A DNA stretch of 64,000 nucleotides, from contig NZ_QNRT01000002.1 in the NCBI RefSeq assembly GCF_003315245.1, positions 478,206 through 542,205 on the forward strand. The letters run 5' to 3'. The DNA is from Arenicella xantha. Lineage in GTDB: Bacteria; Pseudomonadota; Gammaproteobacteria; Arenicellales; Arenicellaceae. How positions within the stretch are numbered: position 1 is the first letter of the stretch; each line of letters begins with the position of its first letter. Under the pieces are notes generated by a model, which worked only from the letters and a program-made list of their open reading frames with translations, did no database searches and was not told the DNA's origin. This document shows positions 1 to 60,066 of the stretch, one piece after another. Position numbers and translations under genes: made by a program.

Positions 1-675
1 AACACTGCAAGTGCATCTGTTGCGAGCAATCTTGACTTCATCGATAACCTGCCAGCAGGTTTAGTGATCGCAACGCCGGCAAATGCATTAACATCTTGCA
101 CCGGTGGAACACTCTCCGCTGTCGCAGGAAGTAGCTTAATATCCTATACCGGTGGCACAGTCGCTGCTGGTAATACCTGCAGCCTATCAGTCGATACAGT
201 CTCATCAACCAGCGGCTTGTTCATTAACGTGTCAGGAGATCTCACCTCTTCGATAGGAAACAGCGGGGTAGCGTCAGCCACTCTTACGGTAAGTGATGCC
301 AATCTCAACGACAATGACAACGACTCAATCTTAAACTCGGTCGACAACTGCCCATCTATTCCGAACCCAACTCAAGCGGACTTCGACTCGGATGGACTAG
401 GTGATGCCTGTGATTCAGACGATGATGGTGACGGCATGCCCGATAGCTTTGAACTTGCGAATGGCTTAGACCCCTTCAACTCATTTGACCAGCAAGCCGA
501 CGCGGACGCAGATGGTTTCACGAACCTCGAAGAGTTTAACTTTGGCAGCAATCCCAATATTGCAGATACAGACACTAACAATAATGGCATACCAGACTTG
601 GTTGACCAGCGCCGTAGAAATACTAGCCCATTACCGGCTATCTTATTACTTCTCGATGAACAAACCCCTGATTAG
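1..675 (+). CDS. C-terminal part of a large secreted repeat protein (5' end outside window) with thrombospondin type-3-like Ca-binding Asp-rich repeats, ending in [15 protein letters not shown]
   Basis: Frame 1 is open from base 1 (the listed ORF starts at an internal Met at 64). The DxDxDGxxDxxD-type repeats ([33 protein letters not shown]) resemble TSP3/OmpA-like calcium-binding repeats. The N-terminal part resembles DUF11-type adhesin repeats. The C-terminal motif recurs at the end of the S8 protease at 46453..48417. Confidence 0.6.
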
Positions 676-687
676 AGCGAGATCAAT

Positions 688-1068
688 ATGTCACATCAAA
701 AACGTACCAATTTGACATCGGACCTAGCGTCTGAAAACTTAAATAATGAGTTATCTGCCACTGAACAAGCTAGAAGAAAACAATTGCTGATGATCGCCGG
801 AGTCGCTGGCGGCACGCTACTGCTGACTGGCTGGGGTAAGCCTATCGTAAATGCCATTGTTTTACCTGCGCATGCCCAGACCAGCATTTGCACCACCGAC
901 ACTGTTGTCGGCGGGCCGCTTGCGGGCAATGCATCCGGTGCCACCTCATGCCAGACTGCCTGTGAGGCAGAAGCCGCAGACCAATCGGCACAGCTATGTC
1001 GAGTCGAAGAATCACTTGACGCAATGAGCGCGACGCAATGCAGTTGTGAGCTTGATCTACCGAATTAG
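688..1068 (+). CDS. Small Cys-rich hypothetical protein with an RRKQLL (Tat-like) N-terminal region followed by a hydrophobic segment
   Basis: 126-aa ORF followed by a strong intrinsic terminator. The N-terminus reads RRKQLLMIAGVAGGTLLL. I recognised no family. Confidence 0.4.
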   Translation: MSHQKRTNLTSDLASENLNNELSATEQARRKQLLMIAGVAGGTLLLTGWGKPIVNAIVLPAHAQTSICTTDTVVGGPLAGNASGATSCQTACEAEAADQSAQLCRVEESLDAMSATQCSCELDLPN

Positions 1069-15953: not shown

Positions 15954-17498
15954 TTATTTAACAGAGTCAGGACAACAACCACACACCGTCATCGGTACGC
16001 CTTTGTTGGTCCACTGCCCGTTCCACTTCGAGAAACCAGCCTGTGGTGCACACGCCGTTGGGCACGCCGCATCAGCTTGCGCTTGATTATTAATAAGAGT
16101 GGCCGACGCTACGTCTTTGCATTGCCCCAAAATCATGTCATCAAAACTATGACTTAGATGCGCAGCAAACGAAGTATTTGGTTGGTTCGCCACATTCGCG
16201 GTGCCGTTGTAGTTGTGACATCCGAAACAATTCAATGCGCCGCCGCCGTTTGCCGCGCTCCCTTGAAAAGTTGTCTCCAATACCACATTCGCTAGCTCTA
16301 ATGAGCCACGCTGATTGGTGGTCGATGCGGGGCTAGACGAACCTGAGCCTTTACTGATATCCGAAACCCACAAAGCCCCATTGAATTCGTAACTTTTCCA
16401 CACATCAAGACTAGCCGGTACGCCTGCGCCAGCCAACACGGTTTGTTGCGCTGCATTCAACTTTTCAATCAACGCAATATTAAGGCCATTACGTGTATCA
16501 ATAGGGTCGCCCTCTACCGTGCCATACGGAAACTCTTGGCAGATATCATTGCCACGCTGACCTGACGGCAAGCTAACCGTCGTAAATGGTTGAGACTCGT
16601 TGAGTTTTTGGCAGGCTGTGGCGTCGACTGCGCAAGCCTCGCTGGTAAAATCGTACGCCGATTGACCTTTGGCCATGTCCGCACAATCAACCGCATTGGC
16701 CTGATGGTCGAGGGTAATCCACACCATTTCTGGATGATTATCCGCCGCCACAACGATATGCCAGCCAATCATGCCAAGTGTGTAATCTACTCCATCAATG
16801 GTCGCATCTGACAACACAAATCCATCAGTGCTCTCATTCGGCTTCATGACTCTCCAAGCCATTTTCATTTCCACCGTTTTAGCTGGAAAGTTTGGCTCTG
16901 ACTGAATCGCTGCATAGTCACACAGATTATGCGACAAACGAATTTCGTAGAAAACCACGTTACCGGCTTGATCATAGATCGCGTGAGCGCCCGCTTGGTC
17001 TGTTCTTTCCGGCAAAATAATAGCGCCAGTATCGTCAATGGTTTTAGCGGTACGAATACTCAAACCCCGATCCTTAGTTGCACCGTCGCACGAATTTGCG
17101 CCTATTTCCAGCACCGGATACTGGGCTTGATCTTGCCAATTAGCCAAACCCGGTTTAGCACTTGGTGAAATCAGATACAGAAACCAGTCTTGTGCGAATT
17201 GGTAGAATTCACAAAATTCAGGAGAACCCGTCACTGGGTTACTGGCAATACTTCCAGGCACCTGCGTCACCGAACGTTGCCACCAGTTGGCTGCCTGACT
17301 AAAATCACAATTTTTGACCTGATCGGCATTCGACAAGCTCGCTGCTACAGCACTCGGCTCAGCCGCCCAAAGGGTCGGGGAATAAGCACTTTGTGCTATC
17401 ACAAAACTGGTTACAAGACACACGGCAATCTGTTTAGCGAGCCACAGACGTGCCCTTTTGCCACGAACATTCATTTTTGCAAGGATAATTTTTCTCAT
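15954..17498 (-). CDS. Secreted hypothetical protein with a single CXXCH (CFGCH) heme-binding-type motif near the C-terminus
   Basis: Start chosen at MRKIILAKMN… (GGAG RBS) with signal peptide …VIAQSAYS. The C-terminal region is Cys-rich (CFGCHN, CPTACAPQ, CGCCPD). Confidence 0.5.
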   Translation of the reverse strand: MRKIILAKMNVRGKRARLWLAKQIAVCLVTSFVIAQSAYSPTLWAAEPSAVAASLSNADQVKNCDFSQAANWWQRSVTQVPGSIASNPVTGSPEFCEFYQFAQDWFLYLISPSAKPGLANWQDQAQYPVLEIGANSCDGATKDRGLSIRTAKTIDDTGAIILPERTDQAGAHAIYDQAGNVVFYEIRLSHNLCDYAAIQSEPNFPAKTVEMKMAWRVMKPNESTDGFVLSDATIDGVDYTLGMIGWHIVVAADNHPEMVWITLDHQANAVDCADMAKGQSAYDFTSEACAVDATACQKLNESQPFTTVSLPSGQRGNDICQEFPYGTVEGDPIDTRNGLNIALIEKLNAAQQTVLAGAGVPASLDVWKSYEFNGALWVSDISKGSGSSSPASTTNQRGSLELANVVLETTFQGSAANGGGALNCFGCHNYNGTANVANQPNTSFAAHLSHSFDDMILGQCKDVASATLINNQAQADAACPTACAPQAGFSKWNGQWTNKGVPMTVCGCCPDSVK

Positions 17499-18029
17499 AG
17501 TACACTCCATATAACGGGGCTTTTGATCTAGCTTTGTATAAAGCTATTCATCTAGCCCCAGATCGTTAATAACTTAACAACAAACTGTGCTGTTAATCAC
17601 TCAATATGAGGGCGTCTAAGCGTCAAAACGGTGATGCGTTGTCGCAACATTCCATGCGGTCCTTTCCTGCCAAGCGCTATACCGGCTGGACACAACAGTT
17701 TAGTTTTTAAAAACCGTAATGCGCCAGTTTCTCCATAAGCTCTACCAAAACTATAGTAAAGCTTAATGTGATATTACGTTGGCGATGCCGTATCGTCCGT
17801 ATGACACAAATTACTTAAATTGCCGACTCCACACCGCCCCCCAGCGCGCGGTAGTCAGTCAAAAACTTGTCTGCTAACCGACAAGCTCCTAATTACCGTA
17901 AACTCTTTTTCTGGACAATGATACTGACGTTAGTCTAATAATGTAACTGCGACAATACTCACCTAATATTCCACTTCGCCAATTAAAATATTGCTGCGCC
18001 CTTTAAATTAGCTCTTTAGGATCCTAAAC

Positions 18030-20069: not shown

Positions 20070-22226
20070 CTAAGGATTGATCTTGAGCGCGGGATCCCCA
20101 AGCAAATGCCAACCAAGTTGCACCGCCGGAAAATCGCTATACTGAGCCAATGCTTGCTTGGCCTGAATCATTGCCTCGCCGATAGTCATACCCTTAAGAT
20201 ACATGCGCTTATTTAGCTCAATACCTAACGCGCGCTCACCGACAGAACTAGTCAATGTCGATGCGCCCATAACACTAGCCGCCCCGTTCTCACCGGACAG
20301 CAGCAACATGTCGGATATCGTGTTGCCTCGAGGATCCACAAAATACGTGTTCCAGCAGCCCCACTGAGTAACCACCGTGGGCTTATTAAGGTTCGTTAGA
20401 TCGGCCACCTGCGATGCTCGCAACATTGGAGGAGTGGTATATGCCCAGCTCTGTTGTGATGAGTGCCCAATGTAAGACACCACCGACACGCCTTGGTTGA
20501 TGAGGCTTAGTAGCTTGTCATGCGCTTGCTGGTGACCATCGATATCAGGATAAACGCGAAAGTCTTCACGTACTCCATCGGACCACTCGCTCGGAATCGC
20601 AGCGATCATGTCGTCGGCATCCTTAGAGAACGACACGCCATTACCAAGGTCGTTCTTATCGGTCACCACCACTGTTCTACCTAAATACCCTGAGCGATTC
20701 TCATAGGCCTTGATCTTGCTCACTACATTGGCCAACTCACTCGGTGTTCTCGCGGAAATACGCGCCACCACCAGTTCGGGTATGCCATCTTCATTGAGGT
20801 CACCGTAGGCAACATCAGACGGAGTTTGAGTAATAGTCAGCGCACCACCTGGCGTAGTCACATAGCGCGTAGGTACTAAACTGACTGAACTCGAAGTGAT
20901 GTTTTTGTAGTCCAGCGTATCGCTGCCAAGTAGCACAACCATCGTCGTGCCCATATGCGTCGCTGCGTGCTTAATGTACGACTGGATCCCTTCCGCGCCA
21001 AACATGTGATGACCGAACTGAGCATAGATATCCGCCACATCGACGACCTTAACGAGGTAGTCTTGTGCGCGTAGTGCAACGAGTTCGTCGAGCGCTGCCC
21101 CTTGCAAACTAGCATGCGTAATAATCAGATATTCAGCGGTACCCGAAGTAATGTCCGTTGGCTCGAGAACCTCTTGCACTGTGGGTTGCGGGTAAGCGGA
21201 TTCACCAATTACAAGATACTCAGCGGCTACACCGCCGGTATTAAACACCACCGAGTCATCTTGATAGCGGATTCCGCGCTTATTTAGTTTTTCGATATGG
21301 CCATCGTCCAAACGCCGATAGACATTAGCCGAAGCTTCACCAAAGTTAGATACTTCGAGTTGCTCGGCATCAACAAAGCCAGCCAGATATCGTTGACCTT
21401 CGGCATCAGCAGAACGTCGATAGCTTACGCTGAATTGGTTCAGCGCAATCCGATCAAACGGCACGCCGGCAATCGCACGATAATTATATTTAAGTGTATT
21501 CGTACCTGCCTGTAAGGGTGCATTGTCAATCGCAAGCTGAGTCGCCGAATTGCCATCAAACTGCTGATCACCAACGACTATGCCATTTACTTCAATTTCA
21601 AAGTGATGATCATTGCCTTCAATCGCAAAATCGAGCAATCCGTACATATCAACCGTAATATCACCTACCGTTGCCGCAAGATTATCAACCTCAAATTGGT
21701 AACTCGGCGTGGCAAAAAAACTAAACGTCTGACCAAAGTGATAAGGGTCAGTAGATGATGGTGAGGAGAAATCATAAGTAACATTACGCTCAATCACCGC
21801 GGTATGTAGATAACTTGAAGCAGACTCCAAGCGTCGATTAACTCGGGTATGAAATGTTTGTATTGACTTACGGTTTGCTAGCGAACGATTAGCCAGCATA
21901 TGTAGCACATACACTTGTTCGTCACGGTACAAACTATCAGCGGGTTCAGCATAAAATTCAATGTAGCCGCCTCCTCCAAACTGACGATTGCGACCACCGC
22001 CTTTACCCGCTGTGGCTAACTGAACCCACTCGCCATTCAGACTCAAACCAAACCGGTCGTGCCTTAAACCGGCCAGATCAGCTCCAGCGTCGACCAACTG
22101 CTCGTAGGTAATGCGATGCATACCAGCTTGTGTAGTACTCAACGTCAATAATTCGAACGCAGCCGCCGTGTTTACAAAACCGCAAACTGCGAGTGCACTA
22201 AAGAACCTAATAAATAAATTTTTCAT
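20070..22226 (-). CDS. Secreted peptidase C25 (gingipain/PorU-like, clan CD) family protein
   Basis: Signal peptide. The catalytic-domain start pattern AEYLIITHASLQGAALDELVALRAQDYLVKVVDVADIY is present. A His-Gly-type motif YIGHS sits ~36 aa before a hydrophobic-block Cys (VVTQWGC), the clan-CD spacing. It lies 25 bp downstream of the giant adhesin and is probably co-transcribed. Confidence 0.5.
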   Translation of the reverse strand: MKNLFIRFFSALAVCGFVNTAAAFELLTLSTTQAGMHRITYEQLVDAGADLAGLRHDRFGLSLNGEWVQLATAGKGGGRNRQFGGGGYIEFYAEPADSLYRDEQVYVLHMLANRSLANRKSIQTFHTRVNRRLESASSYLHTAVIERNVTYDFSSPSSTDPYHFGQTFSFFATPSYQFEVDNLAATVGDITVDMYGLLDFAIEGNDHHFEIEVNGIVVGDQQFDGNSATQLAIDNAPLQAGTNTLKYNYRAIAGVPFDRIALNQFSVSYRRSADAEGQRYLAGFVDAEQLEVSNFGEASANVYRRLDDGHIEKLNKRGIRYQDDSVVFNTGGVAAEYLVIGESAYPQPTVQEVLEPTDITSGTAEYLIITHASLQGAALDELVALRAQDYLVKVVDVADIYAQFGHHMFGAEGIQSYIKHAATHMGTTMVVLLGSDTLDYKNITSSSVSLVPTRYVTTPGGALTITQTPSDVAYGDLNEDGIPELVVARISARTPSELANVVSKIKAYENRSGYLGRTVVVTDKNDLGNGVSFSKDADDMIAAIPSEWSDGVREDFRVYPDIDGHQQAHDKLLSLINQGVSVVSYIGHSSQQSWAYTTPPMLRASQVADLTNLNKPTVVTQWGCWNTYFVDPRGNTISDMLLLSGENGAASVMGASTLTSSVGERALGIELNKRMYLKGMTIGEAMIQAKQALAQYSDFPAVQLGWHLLGDPALKINP

Positions 22227-22250: not shown

Positions 22251-25200
22251 TTAGTTTTTCGATTCAGACTCAATGCCTGTATCGTCCGCTTCTGGCAGAT
22301 CTAGATCGTACTCACCGGATGATCGTAGCTGGTTCAAACGTCTATTAATGTTAGTACGTACTGAGTCAACATCCTCCACCTTCGGGCGAATCCGTGACCA
22401 ATCGAACTCTTCTGGGGTAATCATATTTGCGCCATAAGAAGCATCAGTCTTGAATGGACCATGTGCTGTGACTTCCTCGGCATTTGATATATCCACCAAT
22501 GAAAACCACTTAGCATCGGTATTTACTCGGTGAACGTATTGTCGTGTTTCCATGGCTTCACCAGGGCGACCAACAATCATTTCAGGCGTTAATAGAGTCC
22601 ATTGATCGGCCTCACGAGAGTAGATTTGGAAACCCGCATGACCTACTTCGTTACTGGTTTCCCAACTAATTTCTACCCAATCGCCTTGACGCTCAGCTTT
22701 CAAATAATTGATGGTTACTGGCGTCGTTGCAAACTGTTGCTGATATGCGAAGTCAATGGCTGACTGCGTTGCGCCACCCGATAACGAGTAGCTCGGCGAT
22801 GCGTTGTCACACAGCGCTGCAGTCGGCGAATCACAAACGCGATCTTCTGGCAATGGTTCACCGGCTAGATCTGGGTCACCGGTCTGTCCGTAACCATCAA
22901 CCACAGAGCCACTGGTAACCACTTCGACTCGATAGTTACCGTCCGGCAAATTTGCAAAACTATAATCGCCATTGGCGTCTGTAGTGGTTTCCGAGAGCTT
23001 CACAAAACTACCGCCCTGCTCCACATACAACTCTACAACCACCGCTTGGGCTGGCACATCGGCATTACCACCAGGGCTACCGTCTAATTCCGTCGCTTCT
23101 AGTGTGCCGTTGTCATCAGGTTCGACCAAAGAGATATCCTCTATCACGATGGTGCCGCTAATTTCGTTCGACCCATTGACCCCGAAATCCGCGGTCAAAT
23201 TAGGCGAGTTAGTGGTCAGAGCATAGGTCCAAGGCTTAGCTAGATTGTCACCAACCCCGCCGGTCACCAAGGTTCCGTCACCAATTTCGCTATAACCTAC
23301 CGCATCGAGCACAACAACAATATATTGCCCGCTCGGCAAACTGGTGCAGTAATATTCACCATACTGATTAGTTCGTACCGTTCGAACCAAATTGTCCACA
23401 CCTGGCACTGGCGCATTAGTTACCAGACCTGGATCATTTGGCGTCTCGCTGGAATCACTGTCTAACCAACACTGAATAGTAACCCCCGAAATTCCCGGCT
23501 CATCGTCATCGATAATGCCATCGGCATTAACATCGAACCAAAACCGGTTGCCTATAGAACCTAATTTAACGTCCGACACATACCCTGCGTCTTGCCCAAC
23601 GATATCTGCACCGCCAGCAATAACGATTGGAGTAGGAATCACCTCAAGGGCATTCAAACCGCTTGTCACGCTCGATAAATCCGTGACCTGAATCGTATAG
23701 CTGTCATCTGGCAAACCATTGAAAACGTAGGATCCGTTGGCATTGGTTTTAGTGGTAGCCACCACATTTCCACCGCTATCTAGCAAGTTCAGCGTAACGC
23801 CTTGAAACTCACCGTCGTCAGCGGCGAGATAATCACCATTTGCATTTGAATCGGAGTAAATAGTGCCGGCAATGCTACCTAAATCGCTACCAACTTCAGG
23901 ATTAAAACCGAAGTCAAGGTTGCCAATATTGTTATCCGAATCACTCGCCAAATCGATTGGGAAGTAATTAAATGATCCAACCGACAGATTGGTCGGCTGT
24001 GTATCGTTTAAGTCAACGCCCGCCGCGCCATCAACATCAGCTGACTCATAGCCAACGATTAGCCCGTCAATTAAATCAGCGCCGGTGATACCGGAAATAA
24101 TCCAACTCCCATCAGCGTTGGTGGTAGTGGTTAGAATAATGTCGCCCTGTGGGTTCGCTCCGGTTGCAGTAGATGAGTCATAAATATTGACAGTCACTCC
24201 AGCAATTGGCGCTTCGCCAGCATCGTGAACGCCATCGTTGTCGACATCTACCCACATAAATCCTGACAGAATACCGTCACCGACACTCGGCTCGTAACCT
24301 ACATCCACCTCAGTCACACGTTCACCTTCTGATAATAGAACGGCTTGTGGGTCAACCGTCAAATCTAGGCCTGCCGGAATATCAGCGGGGTTTGCATCCA
24401 CCAGATATTCACCAGCCACCAGGTCAGGGAATATATATTCGCCATTCGCGTCAGTTTGAGTCGAAGCAACAAACTCGGGGTCAGTGGGATCACACGGAGG
24501 GGAAGCAATTGGGCTGGTACACAGATAAACTGTCATACCCGACAAATTCAACTCAGGATCATCAGCCAAACCATTGGTGGTGCCGCCGGCATTTGCCGCG
24601 TCCACAAACAATTCCCCAGAAATTGAGCCGGTCACTTCGTCGTTGATGTAACCGAAGTCAACATCACTTACATCGGCGCCGGCAACACTTACCGACAGCG
24701 CATCTAAACCACTGGTTAAGTCATAGCCAGACAATAGCGATGCCTGGTCTGTTACCGCTACCACATAGTCACCATCGGCTACACCCGAGAAGCTGTAATC
24801 GCCACTCGAATCCGTCACCGTGGTAGCTAGCACTACCGACGGCAACACACCGTCATCATCCGCCAAATCGGGCAAAACCACACTACCGTTGCCGTTCATA
24901 TCGAAGAGACCAGCAATCACCGCCACGCCGTTTACCGTGGCCGTATCTGCCGCGTCTATCAGCGCGTCACCATTGATGTCGATATTACCGTCAATTACGC
25001 TGTAGCCAAGATACAGTCCATCATCAGTGGCGTCGATCAAACCATCACCGTTGATATCAAGCTGGCCGTCAATGACTTCAAGTTCGGCACTTAGCAGTGA
25101 TAGTGTCACGTCCGCAAAGCCAACCTCACCAAGGTCTTCTACACCATCTTTGTCGGCATCCACAAACACCGTGCCAGAAACATCGTTCAGCGTTGCATCA

Positions 25201-28200
25201 ACATAACCAAAGTCCACGTTGCTAGCGCTGCTGCCTAGTTCCAGAGTTAACTCTGTGGCGTTGTTAACAGCACCATCTGGATCTTCGGTTTGCGCACCGC
25301 CAGGGGCGGTCACAAGCACTTGGTAATCACCAGGCACCAGACCATCAAAGGCATAGCTACCATCAGACCCAGAATTTACTACCGACACGGTTGTCTCGTA
25401 ACTTCCGTTGCCATCGGTGTCTTGCAGCAACGTTACCACCGTACCACCAATGCCTAACTCGCCATCAGTTTGATCTGCGCTGGAGTCTGCGTCGCTATAA
25501 ATTACGCCGCTTATCGAACCAGAATTGTTAAAACCGAAACTATCTTGGTTATCGGTGACGCCACCAGCGACGATTACGGCATCAGAGAGTAAATTCTCTG
25601 CTTCGGATGTCGTTCCATTAAAACCGTTTAATTGGCCCTCGGTATCGTTGACCGCTAATAAATAGGTACCATCCTCCAAACCAGTAAACGATACATCGCC
25701 GTTTTCATCAGTCTGCTGAGTCGACACCACATCCGGCTGGCCATCGCCATTTAGGTCATCCGGAATACCATTTGAATCATTGTCTAAGTAAAGATTAATT
25801 GACACGCCAGCAACACCATCTTCGCCAGGGTCTTTAATGCCGTCTTGGTTCGTGTCGATCCACACCGTATCTTCAATCGTATTGAGCGCAGGATTATCAA
25901 AACCAAAGTCCACGTCGGTTACGGTCGACACACCGATATTGAGTGTGATCGGCGAACTGGTATAAGCACCTTCGCTTTGGGCACCGAGCGTTGGCGTGTA
26001 ACCAACTAATTCGGGATCGGTGGCGCTTAAGCGCACAGTGTAGTCGTCGCCAAATGCCACATTGGTAAACAAGTATGACCCATCAGCACTGGTGGTCGTA
26101 GTGTCTAGCAATATGCCTGACGCGTTATACAGCTCAACCACCACACCAGCAATGCCAGCCTCACCAGCATCTTGAATACCATCGCCGTCAGCATCAGCCC
26201 AAACGAGGTTGCCAATTGCGCCAGTATTGGCCGGCGCAACATAACCAAAATCAATACCAGTAACTGCATCGTTGGGTTCCAAAGAAACCGCTTTAGGGTC
26301 AACACCGCCAACACCAAAGGTGTTGATTAAACCCGCTGGTAAGGTAGTGTCATCAACGTTAATCGTATAGTCGCCAACCGGAACATCCGTGAAGGAATAC
26401 GCCCCATTCGCATCGGTAACGGTGGTCGCTGCCACGCCGCCTAAGTCATCCAATAACTCAACAACAATACCAGACAGCTCGGCTTCTTCGAGATCGTTGA
26501 TCCCATCTCGGTCTTGATCTAACCAAACACTGCCGCCAACACTCGATGTTTGAGCATCAACAAAGTTGTTATTCGCGTCGACTTCGTCAACCGCCACCGA
26601 CACAGGAATCTGATTGTCATTGGCATTGCCGTTGCCCGCTGCATCGGTGTCTACTGATTGCGTATCACTCACCGATGAATAACCCGCAGGGTCGACCTCG
26701 ACAATCACGTAATCGCCAACTATGACGTCTTCAAATAGAAAGTCTCCGTTAATATCCGTCACAGCCGTATAAGCTAAAACTCCGTCGCTAGGATCACCGT
26801 CACCATTTGGGTCGGTGTACAACAGTATACTTACCCCAGCTAGATCAACATCACCAACACCATCGAAGTTCTGATCGGCTGATACATTGCCAGACACATC
26901 TCCCGTGGCAAGTTGGTCGGTCACTGAACCCTCAATCGGTGTGGGCAATTCTACCGACGTGGTCGACGCCGTGTTTTCTAGCTCCGTAATTCCGGCGGCA
27001 ATAGGGTCATCAACAATTACATCAAAAGTGACTACCAATGTCTCCCCTGGCGGCAAGTCTATATCATCGCCTGCGGTCACCATATTTGGTGGCGCACTCG
27101 CAGCATCGTTAATTGTTCCTAAGTACTCGTAGTTAACAGTGAAATCAAGCGAGCCTGAGGTGTTCGTGCCGCCAGACAAAGTGTATGTATCTCGCCATTC
27201 GAACGAATAGTTACCTACCGCGTTACCTGTCTGCGCATTTGGGCCAAAAGTTACGTTCCATGGACCTTGGTTATTGCCTCCAAAGCTTCCAGGGCCAAAG
27301 GCATATGTCGTGCCATTTGCTATCGACACATCAAGCCCTATGTCACTGCGCCAATCAGTTGTGCCGCCAGCACTTGCGAAGGCGAACGACGTTATAGAGC
27401 TGTCTGCTGGCAAATCAGGTGTTGTGTTGTAAGCTTGGGTCAGCGTGGATGCAAAGTTTTGATTCGCCGCGAATATATGATTAAAACTATCCGAAACGAG
27501 CCCAGGATAAGTTTTTTGCGCAGTTGCGTTCACATACGTCACACCGGGTGGCAATAAGTCGCTTAATGTAACGTCGTTGGCAGTGCCTGAACCGGTGTTG
27601 GTGACGGTAATGGTGTAGGTAAGCGTATCGCCAGGGCTCACAGCGGCGCCGGCCGCACTCGATACTTTAGTGATCTCGAGCTCGGGTTCATCGACCGCAC
27701 AAAAAGTAAATCCAGCCAACCTTATCGCATGACCATCACTTTCACCGTGCGGTGCTGGTTCGCCGCCACTGGCTTCCGCTGCCGCATCATCTGGCCCATT
27801 TGAGTAACTCACACTTAACGAATCAATCAAATTTGGCGCACTAATCGTAATCTGCCCTGCTGGATCAGTTGTCGCTACACCACCGGACACGCCTGTGACA
27901 TAGTTTGCCGAGGATGTCTGCCCTACCACTGTCACATTGCTGCCAGCGTTTGAAATTGTAATCGGCACATTCGAGCCACTTAGGCTTGCGTTGACTTGCA
28001 CCACGTCTTGGAACGATGACACAGGAAGCGTATTGCTTGGCGCGTTGTAACCAACATCGTCTATATCGGCAACCTGATAATCCACAACATAACCTGGTTC
28101 TGAAAACGAAAATTCAAAGCCGACCACATCGGTCGAGTCGCTTGAAGCCATGCCAACCGTTAAAAAGCCGGTACCAAAAGCCCCATTTGTTTCGGTAGTA

Positions 28201-28601
28201 ATATCCAAACCTGGCGGTGGATCAATGTCACAACTGCCACCGGCCGCTATGACATTAGCCGGACAAGTAAAATTTGAATCAAAATTTCGACCATCAGGAT
28301 CGATTAAGGTTGCAGTCACGACAACACTTTGCGGATTACCAAGCCCGTCCGTATAGTTGACCGTATAGTTTTGGCTCGCGCCATCCGTATTATTGGTGTC
28401 TAACCACTCATTGCCAGTACCCACGCCGGTCGACCAAGAAAAAGTCGCCGGAGAACTATTAGCCGGACATGTTTGTGCATACCCAGAGGTCGGGAATAGT
28501 AAAAATATTCCGATCGTGGCTAATAGCCCAGAGTGTTTTGCATCCAGCGAACCGAAAATACACCCAACCAAATCGCGAAACTTACGATTGAATTTCATCA
28601 A
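22251..28601 (-). CDS. Giant (2116 aa) secreted adhesin-like protein with DUF11 and many SdrD-B/Cna-B-type Ca-binding repeats
   Basis: Signal peptide. DUF11-like segment [34 protein letters not shown]. More than 10 repeats of the (F/W)xDx(N/D)xDGxxDxxExGxxGVxVxL type, giving extensive intragenic DNA repeats. Confidence 0.8.
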
Positions 28602-37732: not shown

Positions 37733-38042
37733 AATCATCGTTCAAGCGTCTGGATACTTCTATAAAAAATAGCGCTGACTGATGGTTATTTCAGAGAAAT
37801 ATACCGCAGATAGAGCAAACGCAGCCACCCAAGGTACAGCGTAAGTCTTTGAACGAAATTAATTCTCAGAAAAACCTTCTAAAGCCGTTCACGTATTTTT
37901 AAAAAAGACTCACTTAATTGAACCATACCTGTTCCGCTAAACACTTATAGGGAAGTACGTGTGTTTCCTCGTCAGGCATCACACAGTCATTAGCGGTGTT
38001 CGCCAACTTTGGTTGAACAATCTAGAAAGCGGAAGGTTTAAT

Positions 38043-39530
38043 ATGGTTCATTTCTCACGTCAATTGTGTCGGTCCTTGTCTTTGTTTTTCACGACTTTGG
38101 TTATTCATGGAATAGTCCTTTCAGCGTCTGCCGCCGAAGTTCCTGAGTATCAGGACATATTTCCTGAGCTGTCGTTAAATGGCAGCATCAACAGAATCCA
38201 AATGACGGAAAGCGGAAAACATCTGGTGGCATTGGTGGAGTCTGCCACTACCGGACAGAATGAACTATTTAGTATTCGCTTAGATAACAGAGTAGCTACC
38301 AAGCTGCATGTACCCTTAAACGGAGGTAACCAGGTTTCAGGTTTCAAAATAAGCCCGAATGGGAATCTGGTAGTGTATCGGACTCAATTTCTTACAGACT
38401 CGTCTGATCAACTATTTAGCGTCTCAATCAATGGTGGTGAGTCCGTCGTACTTAATCCCTTGTTGCTGAGCAATCGCTCTGTGAGGGATTTCTTGATTTC
38501 ACCCAACAGCCAATTTGTTGTTTTTCAAGGTGATATCGATGTCGACGAGAGAAGGGAAGTTTACAGCGTCCCCATTCAAGGAGGTACAGTAATTAAGCTG
38601 AACTCAAATCTTATAAACGGACAGTCTTTATTTGGCCTTGAGATAACGCCGAACAGTGATCGAGTTATCTACAGGAAGACAGACCCGAGCTTTAAGACTG
38701 ATCTTGTCAGTGTGCCAATCGGCGGCGGCTCAGAGGTGCGTTTGCATCCAACACGAACGAACGGCGCATCTGCAAAAAGTTTCGGCACGTATTCCTCGGA
38801 TGGTCGTTCAGTTTTATTGGGGTTTGGCTATGGACTTTTTCAGAGTGAAGATGTTTTTATAGCCACAATCGATGGAAGCACACCGCCACTGCATGTGGTT
38901 AAGCGGTCAACTACCGATTTCAAGATATCTGAAGCGCACTTTACTTTGGATGATCGATTCATCATTTTTCTCGGAAAAAATGAAAGCGCTACATCAAATA
39001 ATCAACAGCACTTATTTAGATCCGACCTTGCTGAGGACGCTGCGCTGGTGCGATTCACACCGATATTACCCAACGCCTTAGGTATTCGCCAACCTTTTCT
39101 TCACCCAGACGGTATCCACGTTGTCTATCGAGCAACACCTAGCACCTCGAATATATTTGAAGTATTTCAGATACCAATTGCCGGTGGCGAGCCAGAGTTA
39201 TTAAGTGGCGTCAGCTCTGCTAATTATACAACCAATGACTTTCTGGTAAGCAGGGATGGTAAACATATAATGTTCAACAAAATTCTATTACCTAGTTTCG
39301 TCCAACAACTATTTGTGACTTCGTTTAATGATAAAAAAACCAGCGCAATTAGCGACACCTTCTTCACCGAATCGGAAAGTACCATTGGCTATGACATAGG
39401 GTCGTCGATCTCAAACTCACTCTTCCTATCGCTAAATCGTGATGCCGTGTTTGTTCCTAAAGTCGAAAATGATGAGCTTTGTGTGCCTATTAAAGTTAAA
39501 AATGGTCGTGTCGCAGTAGTCTGTTTATAG
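38043..39530 (+). CDS. Secreted TolB-like PD40 beta-propeller repeat protein ending in ELCVPIKVKNGRVAVVCL
   Basis: Signal peptide MVHFSRQLCRSLSLFFTTLVIHGIVLSASAA (RBS ggaagg). Repeated blades of the form (F/Y)SxxxxGGxxxxL…(I/F)SP(N/D)…V(V/I)(Y/F). The C-terminal motif is shared with the protein at 58336..60066. Confidence 0.6.
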   Translation: MVHFSRQLCRSLSLFFTTLVIHGIVLSASAAEVPEYQDIFPELSLNGSINRIQMTESGKHLVALVESATTGQNELFSIRLDNRVATKLHVPLNGGNQVSGFKISPNGNLVVYRTQFLTDSSDQLFSVSINGGESVVLNPLLLSNRSVRDFLISPNSQFVVFQGDIDVDERREVYSVPIQGGTVIKLNSNLINGQSLFGLEITPNSDRVIYRKTDPSFKTDLVSVPIGGGSEVRLHPTRTNGASAKSFGTYSSDGRSVLLGFGYGLFQSEDVFIATIDGSTPPLHVVKRSTTDFKISEAHFTLDDRFIIFLGKNESATSNNQQHLFRSDLAEDAALVRFTPILPNALGIRQPFLHPDGIHVVYRATPSTSNIFEVFQIPIAGGEPELLSGVSSANYTTNDFLVSRDGKHIMFNKILLPSFVQQLFVTSFNDKKTSAISDTFFTESESTIGYDIGSSISNSLFLSLNRDAVFVPKVENDELCVPIKVKNGRVAVVCL

Positions 39531-42716: not shown

Positions 42717-44129
42717 ATGCATTTACGTCAATTCAGCATTGGACTTATATTCTTTTTTTGCGCAGCCAATACCGCCTATGGCGCAGCTTACCGTACGTCT
42801 GAACTAAGCAGTGAGTTTAAGCAAGCTCCTCCTGGTGATGGATCTATAGCTCAGCTTAATGAGCGTTCTATTGTCTACGTCACAAAAGAGAGCTACGGTT
42901 TGGCAATCAGGCTTTTTGATCTCGGCACGCAAACCTCTAAGCTGCTAACTAAAGTTGAAGAAACGTCAGTTTTAGCTGCATCTAGCATTACTGCTGGAGA
43001 AGGTTACGCACTGCTAGATATATTAGGTCGAGTCTATGTGACTGATGGCACCACCACAGGTACAAAATTCATTAAGGACTTTGGGTACGGTTTTGCAGGT
43101 AACGTGGGGTCGGAATTTTCAAATCTCATTGAATCCTATGTGTCGGGCAACGTATTTTATATGCTGGTAAGGAATGTTGACAACGACCAAAATTATGCCC
43201 CAGTCTTATGGCGCTTTGATGCAGGCAAATCACAACTTAATAAATTAAACACTGACGCTTTGGGTATTATAAACGGCGTTACACCCAACAAAGGTGGTAC
43301 TGCGGGATCAGTGACATTACTGACACACAACGTCGGCGGTGGTACCAACGTTTGGAGAAATGATAGCCGTGGCTTTGACAATTTCGAATTGCGTGATTCG
43401 AGCACGTTCGATCTAGGAGATTCACTGGCATTTCGTAACGCCACATCAAACTCTAAGGGCACCTTTTTCTGTGTCATCGGATACGATCAACAAGGAAGTT
43501 ATTCGGCAGATAATTCCGGTTTAATGCGGATATCTAACTCCGGCCAGTTAGATAAACTAACCACGGGTTGTTCAGATACTCCTGTCGTAGTGAATGACAA
43601 ACTCTATTTCCAGAGAATTTCTGGGCAGACGCGAGCAATTTGGGAAACAAATGGAAACGTCGGAGCGATGAATCGACTGCTAATTTTGAACTCTTCTTAC
43701 CCAGTCAATGGATATGAAGGCGTCCAGTCAATCTGCGCAGTTCAACAACATATCTACATTCAAGACTATTCTTACGATCAAGGCGACTCGGACAATGCTC
43801 CGAATCGTTTGTTTAAAATCGATTTACCATCTTCATCAACAGAACACGTTGTGCAACGTCCCCTAACAGGAAGCCTCTTAAGCTGCTCGAAAACAAAAGC
43901 GGCGATTTCAGCGAGTGACTTATTGAGTCGCAAGGCGTTTTTTCTTGATGGTGGCACTCAGAAAATGCGTGTGATTCTGCCTACTGACGCAGTACCAGAT
44001 ATCGAGTTATGGGAATACAATGAGCACTATTACAGCATAGTTCATCTAGATTCGTATCGGACGTCTTATTTCGTCAAGCTAAAACTCACCTACCCCGAAC
44101 TCTCAGCGCTTAATTTGATTTTAGATTGA
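42717..44129 (+). CDS. Secreted hypothetical protein (470 aa)
   Basis: Signal peptide MHLRQFSIGLIFFFCAANTAYGAA. Beta-rich with no family recognised. Confidence 0.5.
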   Translation: MHLRQFSIGLIFFFCAANTAYGAAYRTSELSSEFKQAPPGDGSIAQLNERSIVYVTKESYGLAIRLFDLGTQTSKLLTKVEETSVLAASSITAGEGYALLDILGRVYVTDGTTTGTKFIKDFGYGFAGNVGSEFSNLIESYVSGNVFYMLVRNVDNDQNYAPVLWRFDAGKSQLNKLNTDALGIINGVTPNKGGTAGSVTLLTHNVGGGTNVWRNDSRGFDNFELRDSSTFDLGDSLAFRNATSNSKGTFFCVIGYDQQGSYSADNSGLMRISNSGQLDKLTTGCSDTPVVVNDKLYFQRISGQTRAIWETNGNVGAMNRLLILNSSYPVNGYEGVQSICAVQQHIYIQDYSYDQGDSDNAPNRLFKIDLPSSSTEHVVQRPLTGSLLSCSKTKAAISASDLLSRKAFFLDGGTQKMRVILPTDAVPDIELWEYNEHYYSIVHLDSYRTSYFVKLKLTYPELSALNLILD

Positions 44130-46452: not shown

Positions 46453-48417
46453 TTGGATTTAAAAATGGGGCTTAGCTTGAAAAAACAAATCATTATTTGC
46501 GCTTTATTATTAAGTATAGGGTGCTCGAATTATTCTTTTGCCAGCGTATTTGATGAGGCTGGGTCGAACCAAGAAAACATGGTGACTAGTGAGCCCACAG
46601 CAAATCACACTACAAACAAGCGCGCCAAGTTGAAGCCTTTCAACACGCTTAAGAAAAACAACGATGTTCAATTTAAGCCAAGCCTGCGCAAATTTGGAAA
46701 ATTTCTTGCCAAAAGCCTGTCTAATCAAGAAGAAACGAGTGCTAAAACTGATGGTGCAAACACACCGAATACGAGCGCCTTCGTACATCGCAATCAGCAC
46801 GACCAAATCCAAGTTTATATTGACTTCTTTAACCTCGACGAGGCCGTTGAGAAGGCTATCAGAAATGCCGGCCTCACTATTGAACTAGTTAGTTCTGATT
46901 TAAACCGAGTACAGGGCTGGGCCAATGAACAAACTCTTCTAGCGCTAGCTGAAGATAGCAATGTCTTGAGAATTTCAGCGCCCAATTATGCGTTTCCAAA
47001 ATCGGGTGCCGCAGTAACTCAAGGAGACCAAATCCTAGGTAGTGACCTCCTGCGACAAATTGGTCATACGGGAAAAGGAGTACGTGTCGGGATTCTTTCT
47101 GATGGGGCGAAGAACTGGACGCAAGCACGAGATTCTGGTGACCTACCTGCCAAGATTACGCTCTATGGAAATTGTGATTCAGGCAGTACGAGCGCTGATC
47201 TTTGTCGAGCCGGTGGAGGCACCTGCAATGAAGGAACAGCTATGGCCGAGATAGTACATGACATCGCGCCCGATGCTGACATAGCGGTAGCATCAGTACG
47301 CACATCGCTGGAATTCATAGATAAGATAAACACTCTAATTAACGACTTTGGTGCCGATATCATCGTGGATGATCTTGGCTTTTATGGAGAACCATCGTTT
47401 TATGACGGTGACATCGCAACCGCCGTGGCGAATGCATCAAAGCGAGTGCTGTTCGTGTCCGCAGCAGGAAACGACGGGTATGGCCACTATCTGGCTAGTT
47501 ACCGAGGCTCTCATGAACCAATTTGGCTTGATAATCCAAATTATAGTAACACTTCCGTTCACACGTTTGTTGATCCGTTGAGAGGTAACACTTACTACCC
47601 TGCTGAAGAGGATCATTATCACGGGTTTATCGTCACAGCCAATAGCGCGTCAACCGTCATCTTACAGTGGGATGGTCGACTTGGCGGATTTGGTAGCCGA
47701 AATGCTCTTCGACTCAGAATACATGATAGCCAAGGATATGTTGTTTACGCGAGTGACGGCACTCGAACAGCTTCCCCCGAGGATGCAATCGAGGGCGTCT
47801 GCATTCCAAATCCATCTAACGATGATAAAGTTTATTTTGTCACCGTCGAGCTAACTAACGGTCCAGTTTATCAATTTCATTTTAGACTCTTTTTTCTAGG
47901 TCAGGGCGCCATCGAGTACCCTATGGCCGAGTCAAGCATATTTGGTCACCCAAGTGTTGAGCGAGTCTTGGCTGTCGGAACCATAAATTCAAGTCAAGTC
48001 AACACTGGAGAGGTCGCGTTTTACTCCTCTCAAGGCCCGGCCCTTATACACACAACCTCCAGAAATTCAGTGACTGGAGGTGCCCAGTTTGAATCACAAC
48101 AGAAAAGAAGAAAACCGGACTTAGTTGCGCTAGATCAAGTTTCCGTATCGGGGGCCGGTGGGTTCCCGTCGCTATTTTATGGCACCTCTGCTGCTGCACC
48201 TCACGTTGCAGGAATTGCCGCACAGCTAATGAGTGTCACAAATCTCGTGAAAGCTGACGATGTCCGCAGAGCACTTATAAACGGTGCACAAGATATAGGT
48301 AAAAAAGGGTTTGATTTCACGTCTGGCTACGGATTAGTAGACGCTGAGCAGGCTCTCGACAAGCTGCAATATGGGAACCCACTCCCTGCAATATTTTTAC
48401 TTCTGGATAAGCGGTGA
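46453..48417 (+). CDS. Secreted subtilisin-like serine protease (peptidase S8), lipoprotein-like signal, ending in NPLPAIFLLLDKR
   Basis: Classical Ser motif YGTSAAAPHVAGIAAQLMS and Asp-region GKGVRVGILSDG. N-terminal signal with LLSIGCS. Confidence 0.8.
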   Translation: MDLKMGLSLKKQIIICALLLSIGCSNYSFASVFDEAGSNQENMVTSEPTANHTTNKRAKLKPFNTLKKNNDVQFKPSLRKFGKFLAKSLSNQEETSAKTDGANTPNTSAFVHRNQHDQIQVYIDFFNLDEAVEKAIRNAGLTIELVSSDLNRVQGWANEQTLLALAEDSNVLRISAPNYAFPKSGAAVTQGDQILGSDLLRQIGHTGKGVRVGILSDGAKNWTQARDSGDLPAKITLYGNCDSGSTSADLCRAGGGTCNEGTAMAEIVHDIAPDADIAVASVRTSLEFIDKINTLINDFGADIIVDDLGFYGEPSFYDGDIATAVANASKRVLFVSAAGNDGYGHYLASYRGSHEPIWLDNPNYSNTSVHTFVDPLRGNTYYPAEEDHYHGFIVTANSASTVILQWDGRLGGFGSRNALRLRIHDSQGYVVYASDGTRTASPEDAIEGVCIPNPSNDDKVYFVTVELTNGPVYQFHFRLFFLGQGAIEYPMAESSIFGHPSVERVLAVGTINSSQVNTGEVAFYSSQGPALIHTTSRNSVTGGAQFESQQKRRKPDLVALDQVSVSGAGGFPSLFYGTSAAAPHVAGIAAQLMSVTNLVKADDVRRALINGAQDIGKKGFDFTSGYGLVDAEQALDKLQYGNPLPAIFLLLDKR

Positions 48418-52513: not shown

Positions 52514-53581
52514 CTAGAACCTTGCTTCAATTACCATGTTTGTGGCGGTCTCAGTGGCCCGGCGGACATTGCCAAAACCAGCTTGAGTAAGTACGTCAGT
52601 CAGTTTTTTCTCGCCAGCCTGCGCACCAAGACCCAAGCCCACTTCTTGTGCTCGTGATGCCGGAACGCAAACAGTGGTGGAAAAACCATAAAATATAGCG
52701 CCTAGCAAATTAAGGTTCTCTTCCAAACTGTCATTGGCTAATGGCTCGACCAACATGAAGCTGCCATCTTCCTTCATACATTGTTTGATATTTGCGGCAG
52801 CACCGACCGGGTCCCCCATGTCATGCAGCGCATCGAAAATACACACAAAATCAAAATCTCTGTCGGTTATTTCCTTGGCTGAAATTGTGTGAAATTCCAC
52901 ATTTGAGATGCCGGCGGCAAGTGCTTTTGCTTTGGCAGCGTCAATCGATGGTTGATGAAAGTCATAACCATGCACGGTTGAATTGGGGTAGTGTTGTGCC
53001 ATTAATAGACTTGAGGATCCGCGACCACAACCAATGTCTGCGACCTTTCCGCCCTGTTGTAGCTTTTCGTCAACGCCCTGCATCGCGGGGATCCAGTTAG
53101 CTATTAGGTTTACTTGATAGCCTGGGCGAAAAAATCGATCCGTGCCACAAAAGCAACCAGGATTATGATCACCCCAAGCACGACCCTCGCCAGTTTTTAG
53201 TGTCTCAATAGCTGTTTCGCTTTCCATTACTTGTGTAATTACTGATTGAAAAAAGCCTTGCAGACAAGTTGGCTCGCCTTCGTGCGCAAACAACGCTGCT
53301 TGCTCAGGGCTTAGTCCAAATTCACTGGTCTGCGGGTTATAGTCTATGTATCCTGCAGCCGCATTGGCCGACAGCCACTCAAGCAAATAACGCTCATCTA
53401 CATTCGCCTTTTGCGCCAACACCTCTGCCGTACATGCCCCCGCTTGATCCAAGGCTTTATATATCCCTGCTTGATCGCCCATGTAGGCCATAAACAGCCC
53501 CATGGCGCCGCCAATGTCGGCGAAGACTTTGCCAAAAAGCTGATTAAATTTTTCTTCGTTAATGTCCACTTCATTCTCCAA
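52514..53581 (-). CDS. Class I SAM-dependent methyltransferase
   Basis: Motif I VADIGCGRGSSSLLMAQ, acidic motif II …VHGYDF…, motif IV FDFVCIFDALHDMGDP. The N-terminal helical domain resembles the dimerisation domain of small-molecule MTases. Confidence 0.75.
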   Translation of the reverse strand: MENEVDINEEKFNQLFGKVFADIGGAMGLFMAYMGDQAGIYKALDQAGACTAEVLAQKANVDERYLLEWLSANAAAGYIDYNPQTSEFGLSPEQAALFAHEGEPTCLQGFFQSVITQVMESETAIETLKTGEGRAWGDHNPGCFCGTDRFFRPGYQVNLIANWIPAMQGVDEKLQQGGKVADIGCGRGSSSLLMAQHYPNSTVHGYDFHQPSIDAAKAKALAAGISNVEFHTISAKEITDRDFDFVCIFDALHDMGDPVGAAANIKQCMKEDGSFMLVEPLANDSLEENLNLLGAIFYGFSTTVCVPASRAQEVGLGLGAQAGEKKLTDVLTQAGFGNVRRATETATNMVIEARF

Positions 53582-58335: not shown

Positions 58336-60066
58336 TTACAAACAAACCAGAGCGCCTTTGCCGTTACTCGGGAGTATCGGAAAACAAAGCTCATCGCGGT
58401 ACTCTACCGCGCCGATATCGCATGCCCTGCCATCAAAACGCGAAGAACGTAATTGGTCGTCTCTAAACGGCGGTGGTGGCAGCGCTGCCGATTGGATTAC
58501 CGTCTCTGTACCACGACAGCCTTGTATGTAAACTGTTTGTGGCCCACTTGGCGACGAGATTGTAAAGGTATCTATAAAAGCAACGGCAGCGTCAATCGCT
58601 GGGCTCCCACTGGCCAATGCGTGATGCGCACGACTTGTTCCGCTCTGCTGGAGCGGCTTAATAATTCCATTTAGCGCCGTTGGTCGATCACCATCCACAG
58701 TGAGAATTAGATTATCGTTCTGCGAAAAATTATAAGCAATAGGTGGCGAGTCAGGCGCAGCTTTGTAAGTTGCTTGATGGGACGAAAAAGTAAATGCTTC
58801 CGATGAGCCAAACACCGAATGGCTAGGGATAAAGTTAGTTTTATTGTCATAGATCAAAAAAATATTCTTGCCCGACGACAGAGATGCATCTGCACCAAGG
58901 TTGCCGGCTATAATGGAATTCGTGATAAAAAATTTGCTATTCAATTCATTTGCCGCATGGGTAAAGGCGACATTGACCGCGGCGAAATCACCCAAGTTAT
59001 TCGCAATAGTAGAATTCGTTATCAAAAGGTCAACTTGCCCAAGCGCACCCGATATAGCACTCCCCGATTTGGCTCTATTACCGGAAAGGGTTGAGTCGAG
59101 GATCGACACATTTAAATTGCGGCTGATTCGAAGGGCTCCACCGGTCGACGTGCTGATTGATCCTTCTTTGTAACAAGTATTGTTTGCGAAAGCCGATCGC
59201 ATAATAACAACTCTCGGTCTAAGATCAGACGTGACAACGCCAGTTTTTCCACTAGCGATATTAATGGCGCCGCCGGAGCACCCCCTATTTAGACTTGAAT
59301 CAGTCTCAGCGACGTTGGCTTGAAACACGCTATCGATAATTGTTACATTGCCAAACAAGTTGCTGATTGTAATCGCGCCTCCAGACAGTAATCGAGATGC
59401 GCTATTATCACTGCTGTTTACACGAGCTCCGTTACTAATAAATCTCGTGTTTTCAATGGTGACATCTGCGCCATCCACACCGTTGAAAAAGATTGCCCCA
59501 CCTACTGCCCCGCTATTAGAGTCCACACTTGTCGCTGCATTCTGTAGAAAGTCAGAATTACGGATAGTCAAACTGCCACCAATCACACTGACCGCCCCTC
59601 CGCGCGGTGTAGTAGTCATACCTGGAAGCGAGTGGTTTCCTTTAGAGAAAATCAAATTCTCTAAAGTGAGAGAGGCTTGCAGCACACTAATAAACCTGAA
59701 TGGTTGACTGGCAGAATTAGCTCGCGTAATCAAAGCCTTGCCACCCACGCCACGAATCGTGAGTGGATCCACATTGGTATATTCTATAAATGCATTCCGC
59801 GCATCATGCGCCTGAGTGACGTGTGTTTCAATTGAGCTCGGCACCAATATCAAATTTGAAAAAGGTTGAGTGGCACTACTAGTTGCCAACACGCAACCAC
59901 CGACACTACTTTCTACATTCATCGATTGCATTGCTTCAGACAAACTGCAACCACCGGCATCCGTAGCCGAGTCTACGGTGGTTTCCCATACCGACGGTGC
60001 TGATCGCGCCAGCGCACCGTAAGAGCAACACAACACCGATACCAATATTAATGCTAGACCTTTCAT
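58336..60066 (-). CDS. Secreted CSLREA-domain parallel beta-helix protein ending in ACDIGAVEY…ELCFPILPSNGKGALVCL
   Basis: Signal peptide. N-terminal GGCSLSEAMQSMN (CSLREA-like). Beta-helix repeats of the form N…G. The C-terminal CDIGAVE motif resembles that of 50780..52348; the final 18 aa match the tail of 38043..39530. Confidence 0.6.
   Translation of the reverse strand: MKGLALILVSVLCCSYGALARSAPSVWETTVDSATDAGGCSLSEAMQSMNVESSVGGCVLATSSATQPFSNLILVPSSIETHVTQAHDARNAFIEYTNVDPLTIRGVGGKALITRANSASQPFRFISVLQASLTLENLIFSKGNHSLPGMTTTPRGGAVSVIGGSLTIRNSDFLQNAATSVDSNSGAVGGAIFFNGVDGADVTIENTRFISNGARVNSSDNSASRLLSGGAITISNLFGNVTIIDSVFQANVAETDSSLNRGCSGGAINIASGKTGVVTSDLRPRVVIMRSAFANNTCYKEGSISTSTGGALRISRNLNVSILDSTLSGNRAKSGSAISGALGQVDLLITNSTIANNLGDFAAVNVAFTHAANELNSKFFITNSIIAGNLGADASLSSGKNIFLIYDNKTNFIPSHSVFGSSEAFTFSSHQATYKAAPDSPPIAYNFSQNDNLILTVDGDRPTALNGIIKPLQQSGTSRAHHALASGSPAIDAAVAFIDTFTISSPSGPQTVYIQGCRGTETVIQSAALPPPPFRDDQLRSSRFDGRACDIGAVEYRDELCFPILPSNGKGALVCL

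Follow-up and report, generated by a model that had tools for sequence, protein, structure and literature searches.

To our knowledge, the catalogued prokaryotic C-terminal sorting signals (LPXTG, PEP-CTERM, GlyGly-CTERM, MYXO-CTERM, PGF-CTERM and others) share a three-part design and are handled at the cytoplasmic membrane. A second way of holding a protein by its C-terminus is found in Escherichia coli PBP5 and PBP6, whose C-terminal anchors are amphipathic helices of about 18 residues that keep these periplasmic proteins on the membrane surface. In JDVT-CTERM, CFI-box-CTERM and MYXO-CTERM signals, the three parts are a signature motif, a transmembrane helix and a cluster of Arg residues, and the signals are cut by intramembrane proteases (bioRxiv 10.1101/2023.06.07.544157). 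For MYXO-CTERM, cleavage leads to anchoring at the cell surface after Sec export (PMC11980579). A sorting enzyme with many client proteins is typically encoded away from its clients (bioRxiv 10.1101/2023.06.07.544157).

We analyzed a window of 64,000 nucleotides from the marine gammaproteobacterium Arenicella xantha (the whole stretch of DNA studied here) in which two proteins, an S8 peptidase and a protein with TSP3 repeats, end in nearly the same short tail. In its loose form, the tail consists of Pro-x-Pro-x, five or six hydrophobic residues (mostly Leu), one to nine mostly acidic residues, and the stop codon. A tag with a hydrophobic run below membrane-spanning length and an acidic end cannot work by the three-part design. 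If the tail sorts or anchors its carriers, then it would do so by a mechanism different from handling at the cytoplasmic membrane in diderm bacteria.

Results

Comparison of the tail with described C-terminal signals

The tail resembles VPLPA-CTERM and PEP-CTERM (TIGR03370 and TIGR02595; exosortase systems) in its position and in its beginning. Like them, it is a short C-terminal element on unrelated Sec-exported proteins, and it has a proline signature (PLPA, P-x-P) directly before hydrophobic residues. In contrast to VPLPA-CTERM and PEP-CTERM, whose transmembrane helix is about 20 residues long and comes with an Arg/Lys cluster, the tail has a run of 5-6 hydrophobic residues, well below the length that spans a membrane (approximately 18-22 residues), and an acidic end in place of a basic cluster. 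An earlier note on this DNA, made from the sequence alone, had argued that the tail is not an anchor of this type, and the length of the run, the charge of the end and the absence of a model match all agree with that view. Searches of NCBIfam (June 2026) and Pfam with the full proteins (E<=1) and with seven tail-only peptides (E<=10) gave no model that matches the tail, and we found nothing relevant in the literature on the tail peptide strings or on similar tails. As far as NCBIfam, Pfam and the literature show, the tail is uncatalogued.

Signals handled by the myxosortase/CPBP family (JDVT-CTERM, MYXO-CTERM and CFI-box-CTERM) are found at the same end position on homologous S8 peptidases. 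Two distant homologues of the A. xantha S8 peptidase have JDVT-CTERM where the tail would be (P0105, 36.5 bits, and P0108, 31.9 bits; cutoff 27), and a third has CFI-box-CTERM there (P0107, 80.7 bits; cutoff 40). The JDVT-CTERM model matched distant homologues only (P0105, P0108, P0117 and P0118). The features that these signals need (an invariant Cys, a helix across the membrane and a cluster of Arg residues) are all missing from the tail. Cys is absent from both tails in the window and from the 71 strict homologue tails described below.

Like the GlyGly-CTERM signal of the rhombosortase system, the tail marks the C-termini of secreted proteases in marine Gammaproteobacteria, but it has no Gly-Gly motif, transmembrane helix or basic cluster, and so does not belong to that group. 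The mode of action that we propose below is closest to that of the helices of PBP5 and PBP6, which are likewise C-terminal peptides that act without an enzyme and hold a protein on the membrane without spanning it; the tail differs from them in being only about eight residues long and uniformly hydrophobic, with an acidic cap. The C-terminal domain (CTD) recognized by PorU in the type 9 secretion system (T9SS) likewise acts as a signal at the C-termini of a variety of secreted proteins, and the window encodes a PorU-like C25 peptidase. However, that domain is folded, comprises 70-100 amino acids and is limited to Bacteroidota, whereas the tail has 13-17 residues and no match to a CTD model.

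Two other kinds of C-terminal signal were considered and rejected. The N-terminal signal peptides on both window proteins and on most homologues speak against a type 1 secretion (T1SS) signal, as do the upstream repeats, which are TSP3 rather than RTX GGxGxD repeats. The tail is also not an outer-membrane beta-signal: the termini are acidic or polar rather than aromatic, and the run is contiguous Leu/Ile rather than alternating.

The two tails in the window are conserved as peptides

The S8 peptidase terminates in GNPLPAIFLLLDKR followed by the stop codon (longer excerpts of its end are QYGNPLPAIFLLLDKR and KLQYGNPLPAIFLLLDKR, both also ending at the stop), and the two copies of the tail are identical in 10 of 11 residues, the sole change being Leu/Phe (Table 1). 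The coordinates of both copies match the frame translations and are those that the earlier note had assigned. That note had also described the tail as common to otherwise unrelated exported proteins and strictly C-terminal. Both points hold. When the complete S8 peptidase was compared with the complete TSP3 protein by BLASTP, only the 13-residue tail aligned (9 of 13 identical).

We back-translated PLPAI[LF]4D into degenerate DNA and found exactly two matches in the window and none in 100 shuffles. A six-frame scan of the window found no third exact copy. The 30-nt DNAs that encode the two tails have six synonymous third-position differences over 10 codons. Based on these differences, we conclude that conservation is at the level of the peptide and that the tail is not a DNA repeat. 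Origin of the tail from a repeat or a terminator is ruled out by the same differences and by the lack of a hairpin overlapping the tail. The suggestion in the earlier note that the window may be enriched for such tags is based on two kinds of C-terminal tag, on four proteins.

The carriers are predicted to be exported

Both carriers have N-terminal signal peptides, from which we infer that both are exported through Sec and have the corresponding topology. The signal peptides are of type I. A lipobox-like LSIGC in the A. xantha S8 peptidase is not conserved (a lipobox is present in just 10 of 101 homologues), and we therefore rejected lipoprotein anchoring of this protein.

The S8 peptidase matches Peptidase_S8 (PF00082) with 66.1 bits (gathering cutoff 21.8; E=4e-18). 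Translation more likely begins at the ATG at 46465 (as in the Logan product) or at the codon at 46477 (as in the 646-aa protein P0001 at NCBI) than at the TTG at 46453. The gene of the other carrier is cut by the edge of the window, and we obtained it in full from a second assembly of A. xantha (L109), which brought the A. xantha DNA examined to about 73 kb. The complete protein has, in order, a signal peptide, about nine DUF7933 repeats (E=2e-27), TSP3 repeats (TSP_3, E=1.6e-11) and the tail.

Table 1. Positions of the tails and their carrier genes in the A. xantha window.
Feature	Position	Strand	Details
S8 (subtilase) peptidase gene with N-terminal signal peptide	46465..48417	+	100% identical to A. 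xantha S8 family peptidase P0001
C-terminal tail of the S8 peptidase, N-PLPAIFLLLD-KR and stop	48376..48417	+	N, 48376-48378; PLPAIFLLLD, 48379-48408; stop, 48415-48417
3' end (last 224 codons) of the gene for a 1362-aa protein, predicted to be exported	1..675	+	Full gene, L109:5900-9988
TSP3/TSP3_bac calcium-binding repeats just upstream of the tail	295..609	+	Residues 99-203 match the MtsC TSP3 region
C-terminal tail of the TSP3 protein and stop	625..675	+	S, 625-627; 10-residue motif, 628-657; stop, 673-675
Possible third, degenerate tail, YPELSALNLILD and stop	44091..44129	+	On a 470-aa protein with a signal peptide and no family assignment

Most close homologues of the S8 peptidase end in the tail

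We took the best 120 homologues of the S8 peptidase (34-54% identity, mostly metagenomic) and sorted their C-termini by type. The tail was at the extreme C-terminus of about 83 of them: 71 had the strict form (a hydrophobic run and then a short, non-basic end) and about 12 had one interrupting residue. Seven had a variant, LPAII-EAAKxxN, about nine had a classical tripartite signal, and the remainder had large extra C-terminal domains or were truncated.

The strict tails are uniform in their layout. The hydrophobic run was most often five residues long (n=49), followed by six (n=16, as in both window proteins), four (n=3) and seven (n=3). A Pro lay no more than four residues ahead of the run in 67 of the 71, and the one to nine residues after it were net negative in 68. 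In a MAFFT alignment of 82 S8 homologues, the consensus was ...GRVDAxxAxxxLxxxxxxPxxxLLLxDxx. The P, LLL and D columns of the tail reached a majority, whereas the columns of the preceding linker did not. The two tails in the window end in DEQTPD (TSP3 protein) and DKR (S8 peptidase); DKR has a net charge of +1, against the acidic norm.

Near-exact copies of the motif were found in P0002, in P0068 (...PLPAIFLLLLEEDE) and in P0121 (...PLPAIMLLLNDEE), and all carriers with an organism name are from Arenicella. The earlier note had said that the idea of a tag would fall if the motif were confined to the two window proteins or internal in their homologues. We found it well beyond these two, and the homologues hold the tail at the C-terminus. 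The conservation that the note had proposed thus holds for the tail, but not for the exact string PLPAI[LF]LLLD, which is a lineage-specific form of a far more degenerate tail.

The tail also follows TSP3 repeats in a second group of proteins

A search with the C-terminal 130 residues of the TSP3 protein retrieved 53 short metagenomic proteins. In about 20 of these fragments, the tail came straight after a TSP3_bac repeat pair, with endings such as ..TPILQLLLLDDDARR, ..APIFLLLLSED, ..LPAILNLLLDDQ, ..MPWLELLLLDD and ..KPWLLLLDD. Together, the repeats and the tail make up a conserved module at the C-terminus, about 80 residues long, which closes in ..P..ΦΦLLLLDD in the alignment (A6).

The sequences upstream of this module were varied. 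They included an FG-GAP repeat (P0154, E=1e-14), DUF7933 (P0124), S8 domains (P0086, P0113 and P0135) and several unclassified sequences, and the module was also present on small proteins with signal peptides of their own (P0131 and P0152). At locus L110, an insertion sequence splits an S8+TSP3+tail gene, and P0135 is the 3' part of that gene. The tail in the S8+TSP3 fusions is about 100 residues away from the protease domain.

The predicted structure of the tail differs between the two contexts

AlphaFold2 (AF2) modeling of the S8 alignment gave a mean pLDDT of 83.4, with residues 640-647 (AIFLLLDK) as a short helix (pLDDT ~78-87). In the model of the TSP3+tail module, the repeats had a pLDDT of 94-96 and the tail was a low-confidence coil (pLDDT 52-61). 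According to this model, the tail is not docked on the TSP3 region. Since the tail is predicted as a helix in one context and as a free coil in the other, it appears to need no particular partner domain. The pLDDT of approximately 80 for the helix in the S8 peptidase could instead reflect packing on the protease.

Searches for the tail alone recover few carriers

A degenerate DNA search for exact PLPAI[LF]4D in 185,579 species genomes (source genome masked or absent) gave 21 matches, with about 13 estimated from base composition, and none of the 21 was at the C-terminus of a long open reading frame (ORF). A metagenome DNA scan with the relaxed pattern PxPxΦΦLLLDDE gave at least 81 loci, and those among the matches listed were all chance or internal matches. 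A known carrier that fits this pattern (P0008, from JGI) was absent among the matches listed.

Additionally, we searched protein databases with a tail-only profile. There were just two matches at E<=10 in a database of 5.8 billion proteins, and no proteins at E<=0.001 among 1.84 billion cluster representatives. So few matches are found in databases of this size because the tails score merely ~15-25 bits. Using a regular expression and a local HMM, we found S8 and TSP3 proteins but no further carrier families in approximately 250 kb flanking the tailed genes. Within each genome, the tag may therefore be rare and present on few proteins.

No partner gene recurs next to tailed S8 genes

We compared nine neighborhoods of tailed S8 genes (the window, L024, L025, L026/27, L110, L111, L112/113, L114/115 and L116). 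Apart from synteny within one clade, there was no recurrent partner gene or sorting enzyme, and the earlier suggestion of a co-distributed protease or transpeptidase was not borne out in these nine. The one clade keeps the order str operon, LysE, S8, methyltransferase and metallophosphoesterase; we rejected the set of S8, methyltransferase and metallophosphoesterase as a sorting system since in this clade it looks like ordinary synteny.

Two candidate enzymes scored below their cutoffs. A rhomboid lay 1 kb downstream of the tailed S8 gene in one lineage (one of the nine contexts); its best match was rhombosortase (TIGR03902), with 43.6 bits against a cutoff of 84. The PorU-like C25 peptidase in the window scored 136.8 bits against NF033707, far under the cutoff of 420.

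Discussion

Based on these comparisons of sequences, we conclude that the tail is a real, modular C-terminal element under selection, on exported proteins and independent of the family of its carrier. The sequences show directly its layout, its place at the very C-terminus, its conservation, its occurrence on different protein families and its replacement by known sorting signals in homologues. Probably, the tail is a tag for envelope sorting or anchoring that has not been described before. The strongest case for sorting or anchoring of its carriers comes from the distant S8 homologues, which bear catalogued signals in the same position. The S8 family thus appears to use different C-terminal anchors in different lineages. 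The range of carriers, which bears on how broad such a tag would be, rests on S8 peptidases and TSP3-linked fragments, many of which possibly come from few families.

The reading that we favor, tentatively, is that the tail is a short hydrophobic anchor that does not span the membrane and acts without an enzyme in sorting or retention after Sec export. The N-terminal signal peptide would take the carrier through Sec. For a stop-transfer anchor in the inner membrane, a hydrophobic run of 5-6 residues is too short and an acidic end is wrongly charged, and the tail should therefore cross this membrane with the rest of the protein. The whole tail would then arrive on the periplasmic side and serve there as a sorting or retention element. 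Its proline-capped, Leu-rich helix of about eight residues could reach one leaflet deep into the membrane, and the acidic end (together with the calcium-binding TSP3 repeats, where present) would be held at the cation-rich surface of the membrane. The tail would in this way do directly what lipid anchors derived from tripartite signals do in related proteins. We infer both that the tail anchors its carriers and that no enzyme processes it. A run of 5-6 residues is very short for stable association with a membrane, which speaks against an anchor.

The tail might instead be recognized by a dedicated machine whose genes lie elsewhere in the genome (a processing peptidase, a transpeptidase or a secretion component) and that cleaves it or to which it is handed over. 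We think this rather unlikely. With a proline signature before a hydrophobic stretch, the tail is built on a logic similar to that of the signature motifs in known sorting signals, and it occupies the position of JDVT-CTERM and CFI-box-CTERM in the distant homologues. There are also the rhombosortase-like rhomboid and the PorU-like peptidase described above. However, no candidate recurred in the nine neighborhoods, the rhomboid is limited to one lineage and scores below its cutoff, and the known intramembrane sorting enzymes need a substrate helix that spans the membrane, which the tail does not have. An enzyme encoded elsewhere would still be compatible with the missing neighbor, as is usual for sorting enzymes with many clients (bioRxiv 10.1101/2023.06.07.544157).

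A purely structural or regulatory role, in which the helix docks on its own protein (for example, in autoinhibition of the protease) or drives oligomerization or aggregation, seems unlikely to us, and less likely than either an anchor or a signal for a machine, because the tail follows long flexible TSP3 linkers and unrelated passenger domains. Runs of leucine are sticky, and the predicted helix in the S8 peptidase would fit such a role. The free coil predicted in the TSP3 context does not, nor does the distance between the tail and the protease domain in the S8+TSP3 fusions, and in homologues the tail is replaced by bona fide sorting signals.

It is very improbable that the tail is a non-functional remnant of a PEP-CTERM or VPLPA-CTERM domain that has lost the second half of the helix and the basic cluster. 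PLPA directly before hydrophobic residues does resemble the start of these domains, a likeness that we take as a lead only. Against decay, the run of 5-6 residues and the acidic end persist across more than 80 homologues (34-54% identity) as well as in a second family, which indicates selection, and no model of either signal matched even at E<=10. A chance resemblance between low-complexity sequences is scarcely credible. By composition, an estimated ~2 per 4000 proteins should have a Pro, five hydrophobic residues and an acidic residue near the C-terminus, and the matches listed from the exact genome scan and the relaxed metagenome scan were chance matches only. However, no long ORF ends in one of those matches, about 83 of 120 homologues keep the tail at the terminus, the tails found by homology all lie 0-9 residues from the stop codon, and the near identity of the two window tails stands against none in 100 shuffles. 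The conservation of the tail appears to effectively exclude both decay and chance.

The anchor that we favor touches on a wider possibility, which we regard as doubtful but worth stating: that the tail represents a new class of sorting signal that breaks the tripartite rule, either as a self-sufficient anchor or as the substrate of a sorting machine in the periplasm or outer membrane, and that Arenicella, along with many marine bacteria not yet cultured, uses it on secreted proteases and calcium-binding adhesins. If the tail does sort or anchor proteins, proteases and adhesins could be better annotated in marine metagenomes.

The window may contain one more carrier. The 470-aa protein with the candidate third tail has no Pfam match, and its C-terminus resembles the interrupted tails of P0127 (..LPAILNLLLDDQ) and P0136 (..LLPIITIILD).

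The VCL tag in two otherwise unrelated proteins

The VCL tag, another C-terminal tag of the window, was the only similarity that BLASTP found between its two carriers. The shared tail has 19 residues, DELC(V/F)PI..NG..A(V/L)VCL, of which 12 are identical (E=1e-4), and outside it the two proteins are unrelated. A choice-of-anchor Q domain (36.7 bits; cutoff 25) is also present in the one encoded on the (-) strand, in agreement with an anchoring or sorting role of the tail. A separate protein of the window, the one with the mannan-binding domain, has a Cys-rich end, ..VCGCCPDSVK.

A PorU-like peptidase is a candidate for processing C-terminal tags. The best NCBIfam match of the Peptidase_C25 protein was the T9SS sortase PorU, at 136.8 bits, far under the cutoff of 420. 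This PorU-like peptidase is in a gammaproteobacterium, and the same window holds two kinds of C-terminal tag. We consider it a candidate processing enzyme.

Table. Locations of features in the window and in other loci with tailed S8 genes (L handles).
Feature	Locus	Position	Strand	Remark
126-aa ORF	window	688..1068	+	start 13 nt past TSP3-protein stop
Mannan-binding-domain protein, 518 aa	window	15954..17510	-	C-terminal MVL domain, 27.4 bits (cutoff 25)
Peptidase_C25 protein	window	20070..22226	-	E=2e-59
2116-aa protein	window	22251..28601	-	Peptidase_C25 gene directly downstream
VCL-tag protein	window	37959..39530	+
VCL-tag protein	window	58336..60066	-
470-aa protein	window	42717..44129	+	signal peptide; ends YPELSALNLILD
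Methyltransferase	window	52514..53581
Rhomboid-family protein, 489 aa	L112	12850..14319		best match rhombosortase, 43.6 bits (cutoff 84)
Same	L113	4606..6075
S8+TSP3+tail gene, interrupted by insertion sequence	L110	6302..10537
S8 part	L110	6302..7894
DDE transposase	L110	7945..9732
TSP3+tail part	L110	10001..10537

Relatives of the Leu-rich tail

The end of the 470-aa protein may be a degenerate, interrupted form of the Leu-rich tail that the S8 peptidase and the TSP3-repeat protein share. The protein had no family match, and its gene lies 2.3 kb upstream of that for the S8 peptidase. One sub-clade of S8 homologues (P0081, P0082, P0084, P0093, P0096, P0098, and P0099) has another conserved tail, ..(F/L)LPAII(E/Q)AAKxxN, which retains the LPAI core and has an amphipathic stretch in place of the Leu run and acidic end.

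Neighborhoods of the tailed genes

Synteny around tailed S8 genes was conserved within one clade, with Arenicella sp. 4NH20-0111 among its members. The order in five loci (L025, L026, L027, L114, and L115) is fusA-rpsG-rpsL, LysE, S8, a convergent class I methyltransferase, and a metallophosphoesterase. In the window, too, a methyltransferase gene lies 4 kb downstream of the S8 gene. The rhomboid gene of L112 and L113 is 1 kb downstream of the tailed S8 gene and was found in a single uncultured lineage only.

The 126-aa ORF is probably co-transcribed with the adhesin-like TSP3 protein. It had no family match. It contains a segment of twin-arginine-like or membrane type, EQARRKQLLMIAGVAGG, and its C-terminal half is Cys-rich.
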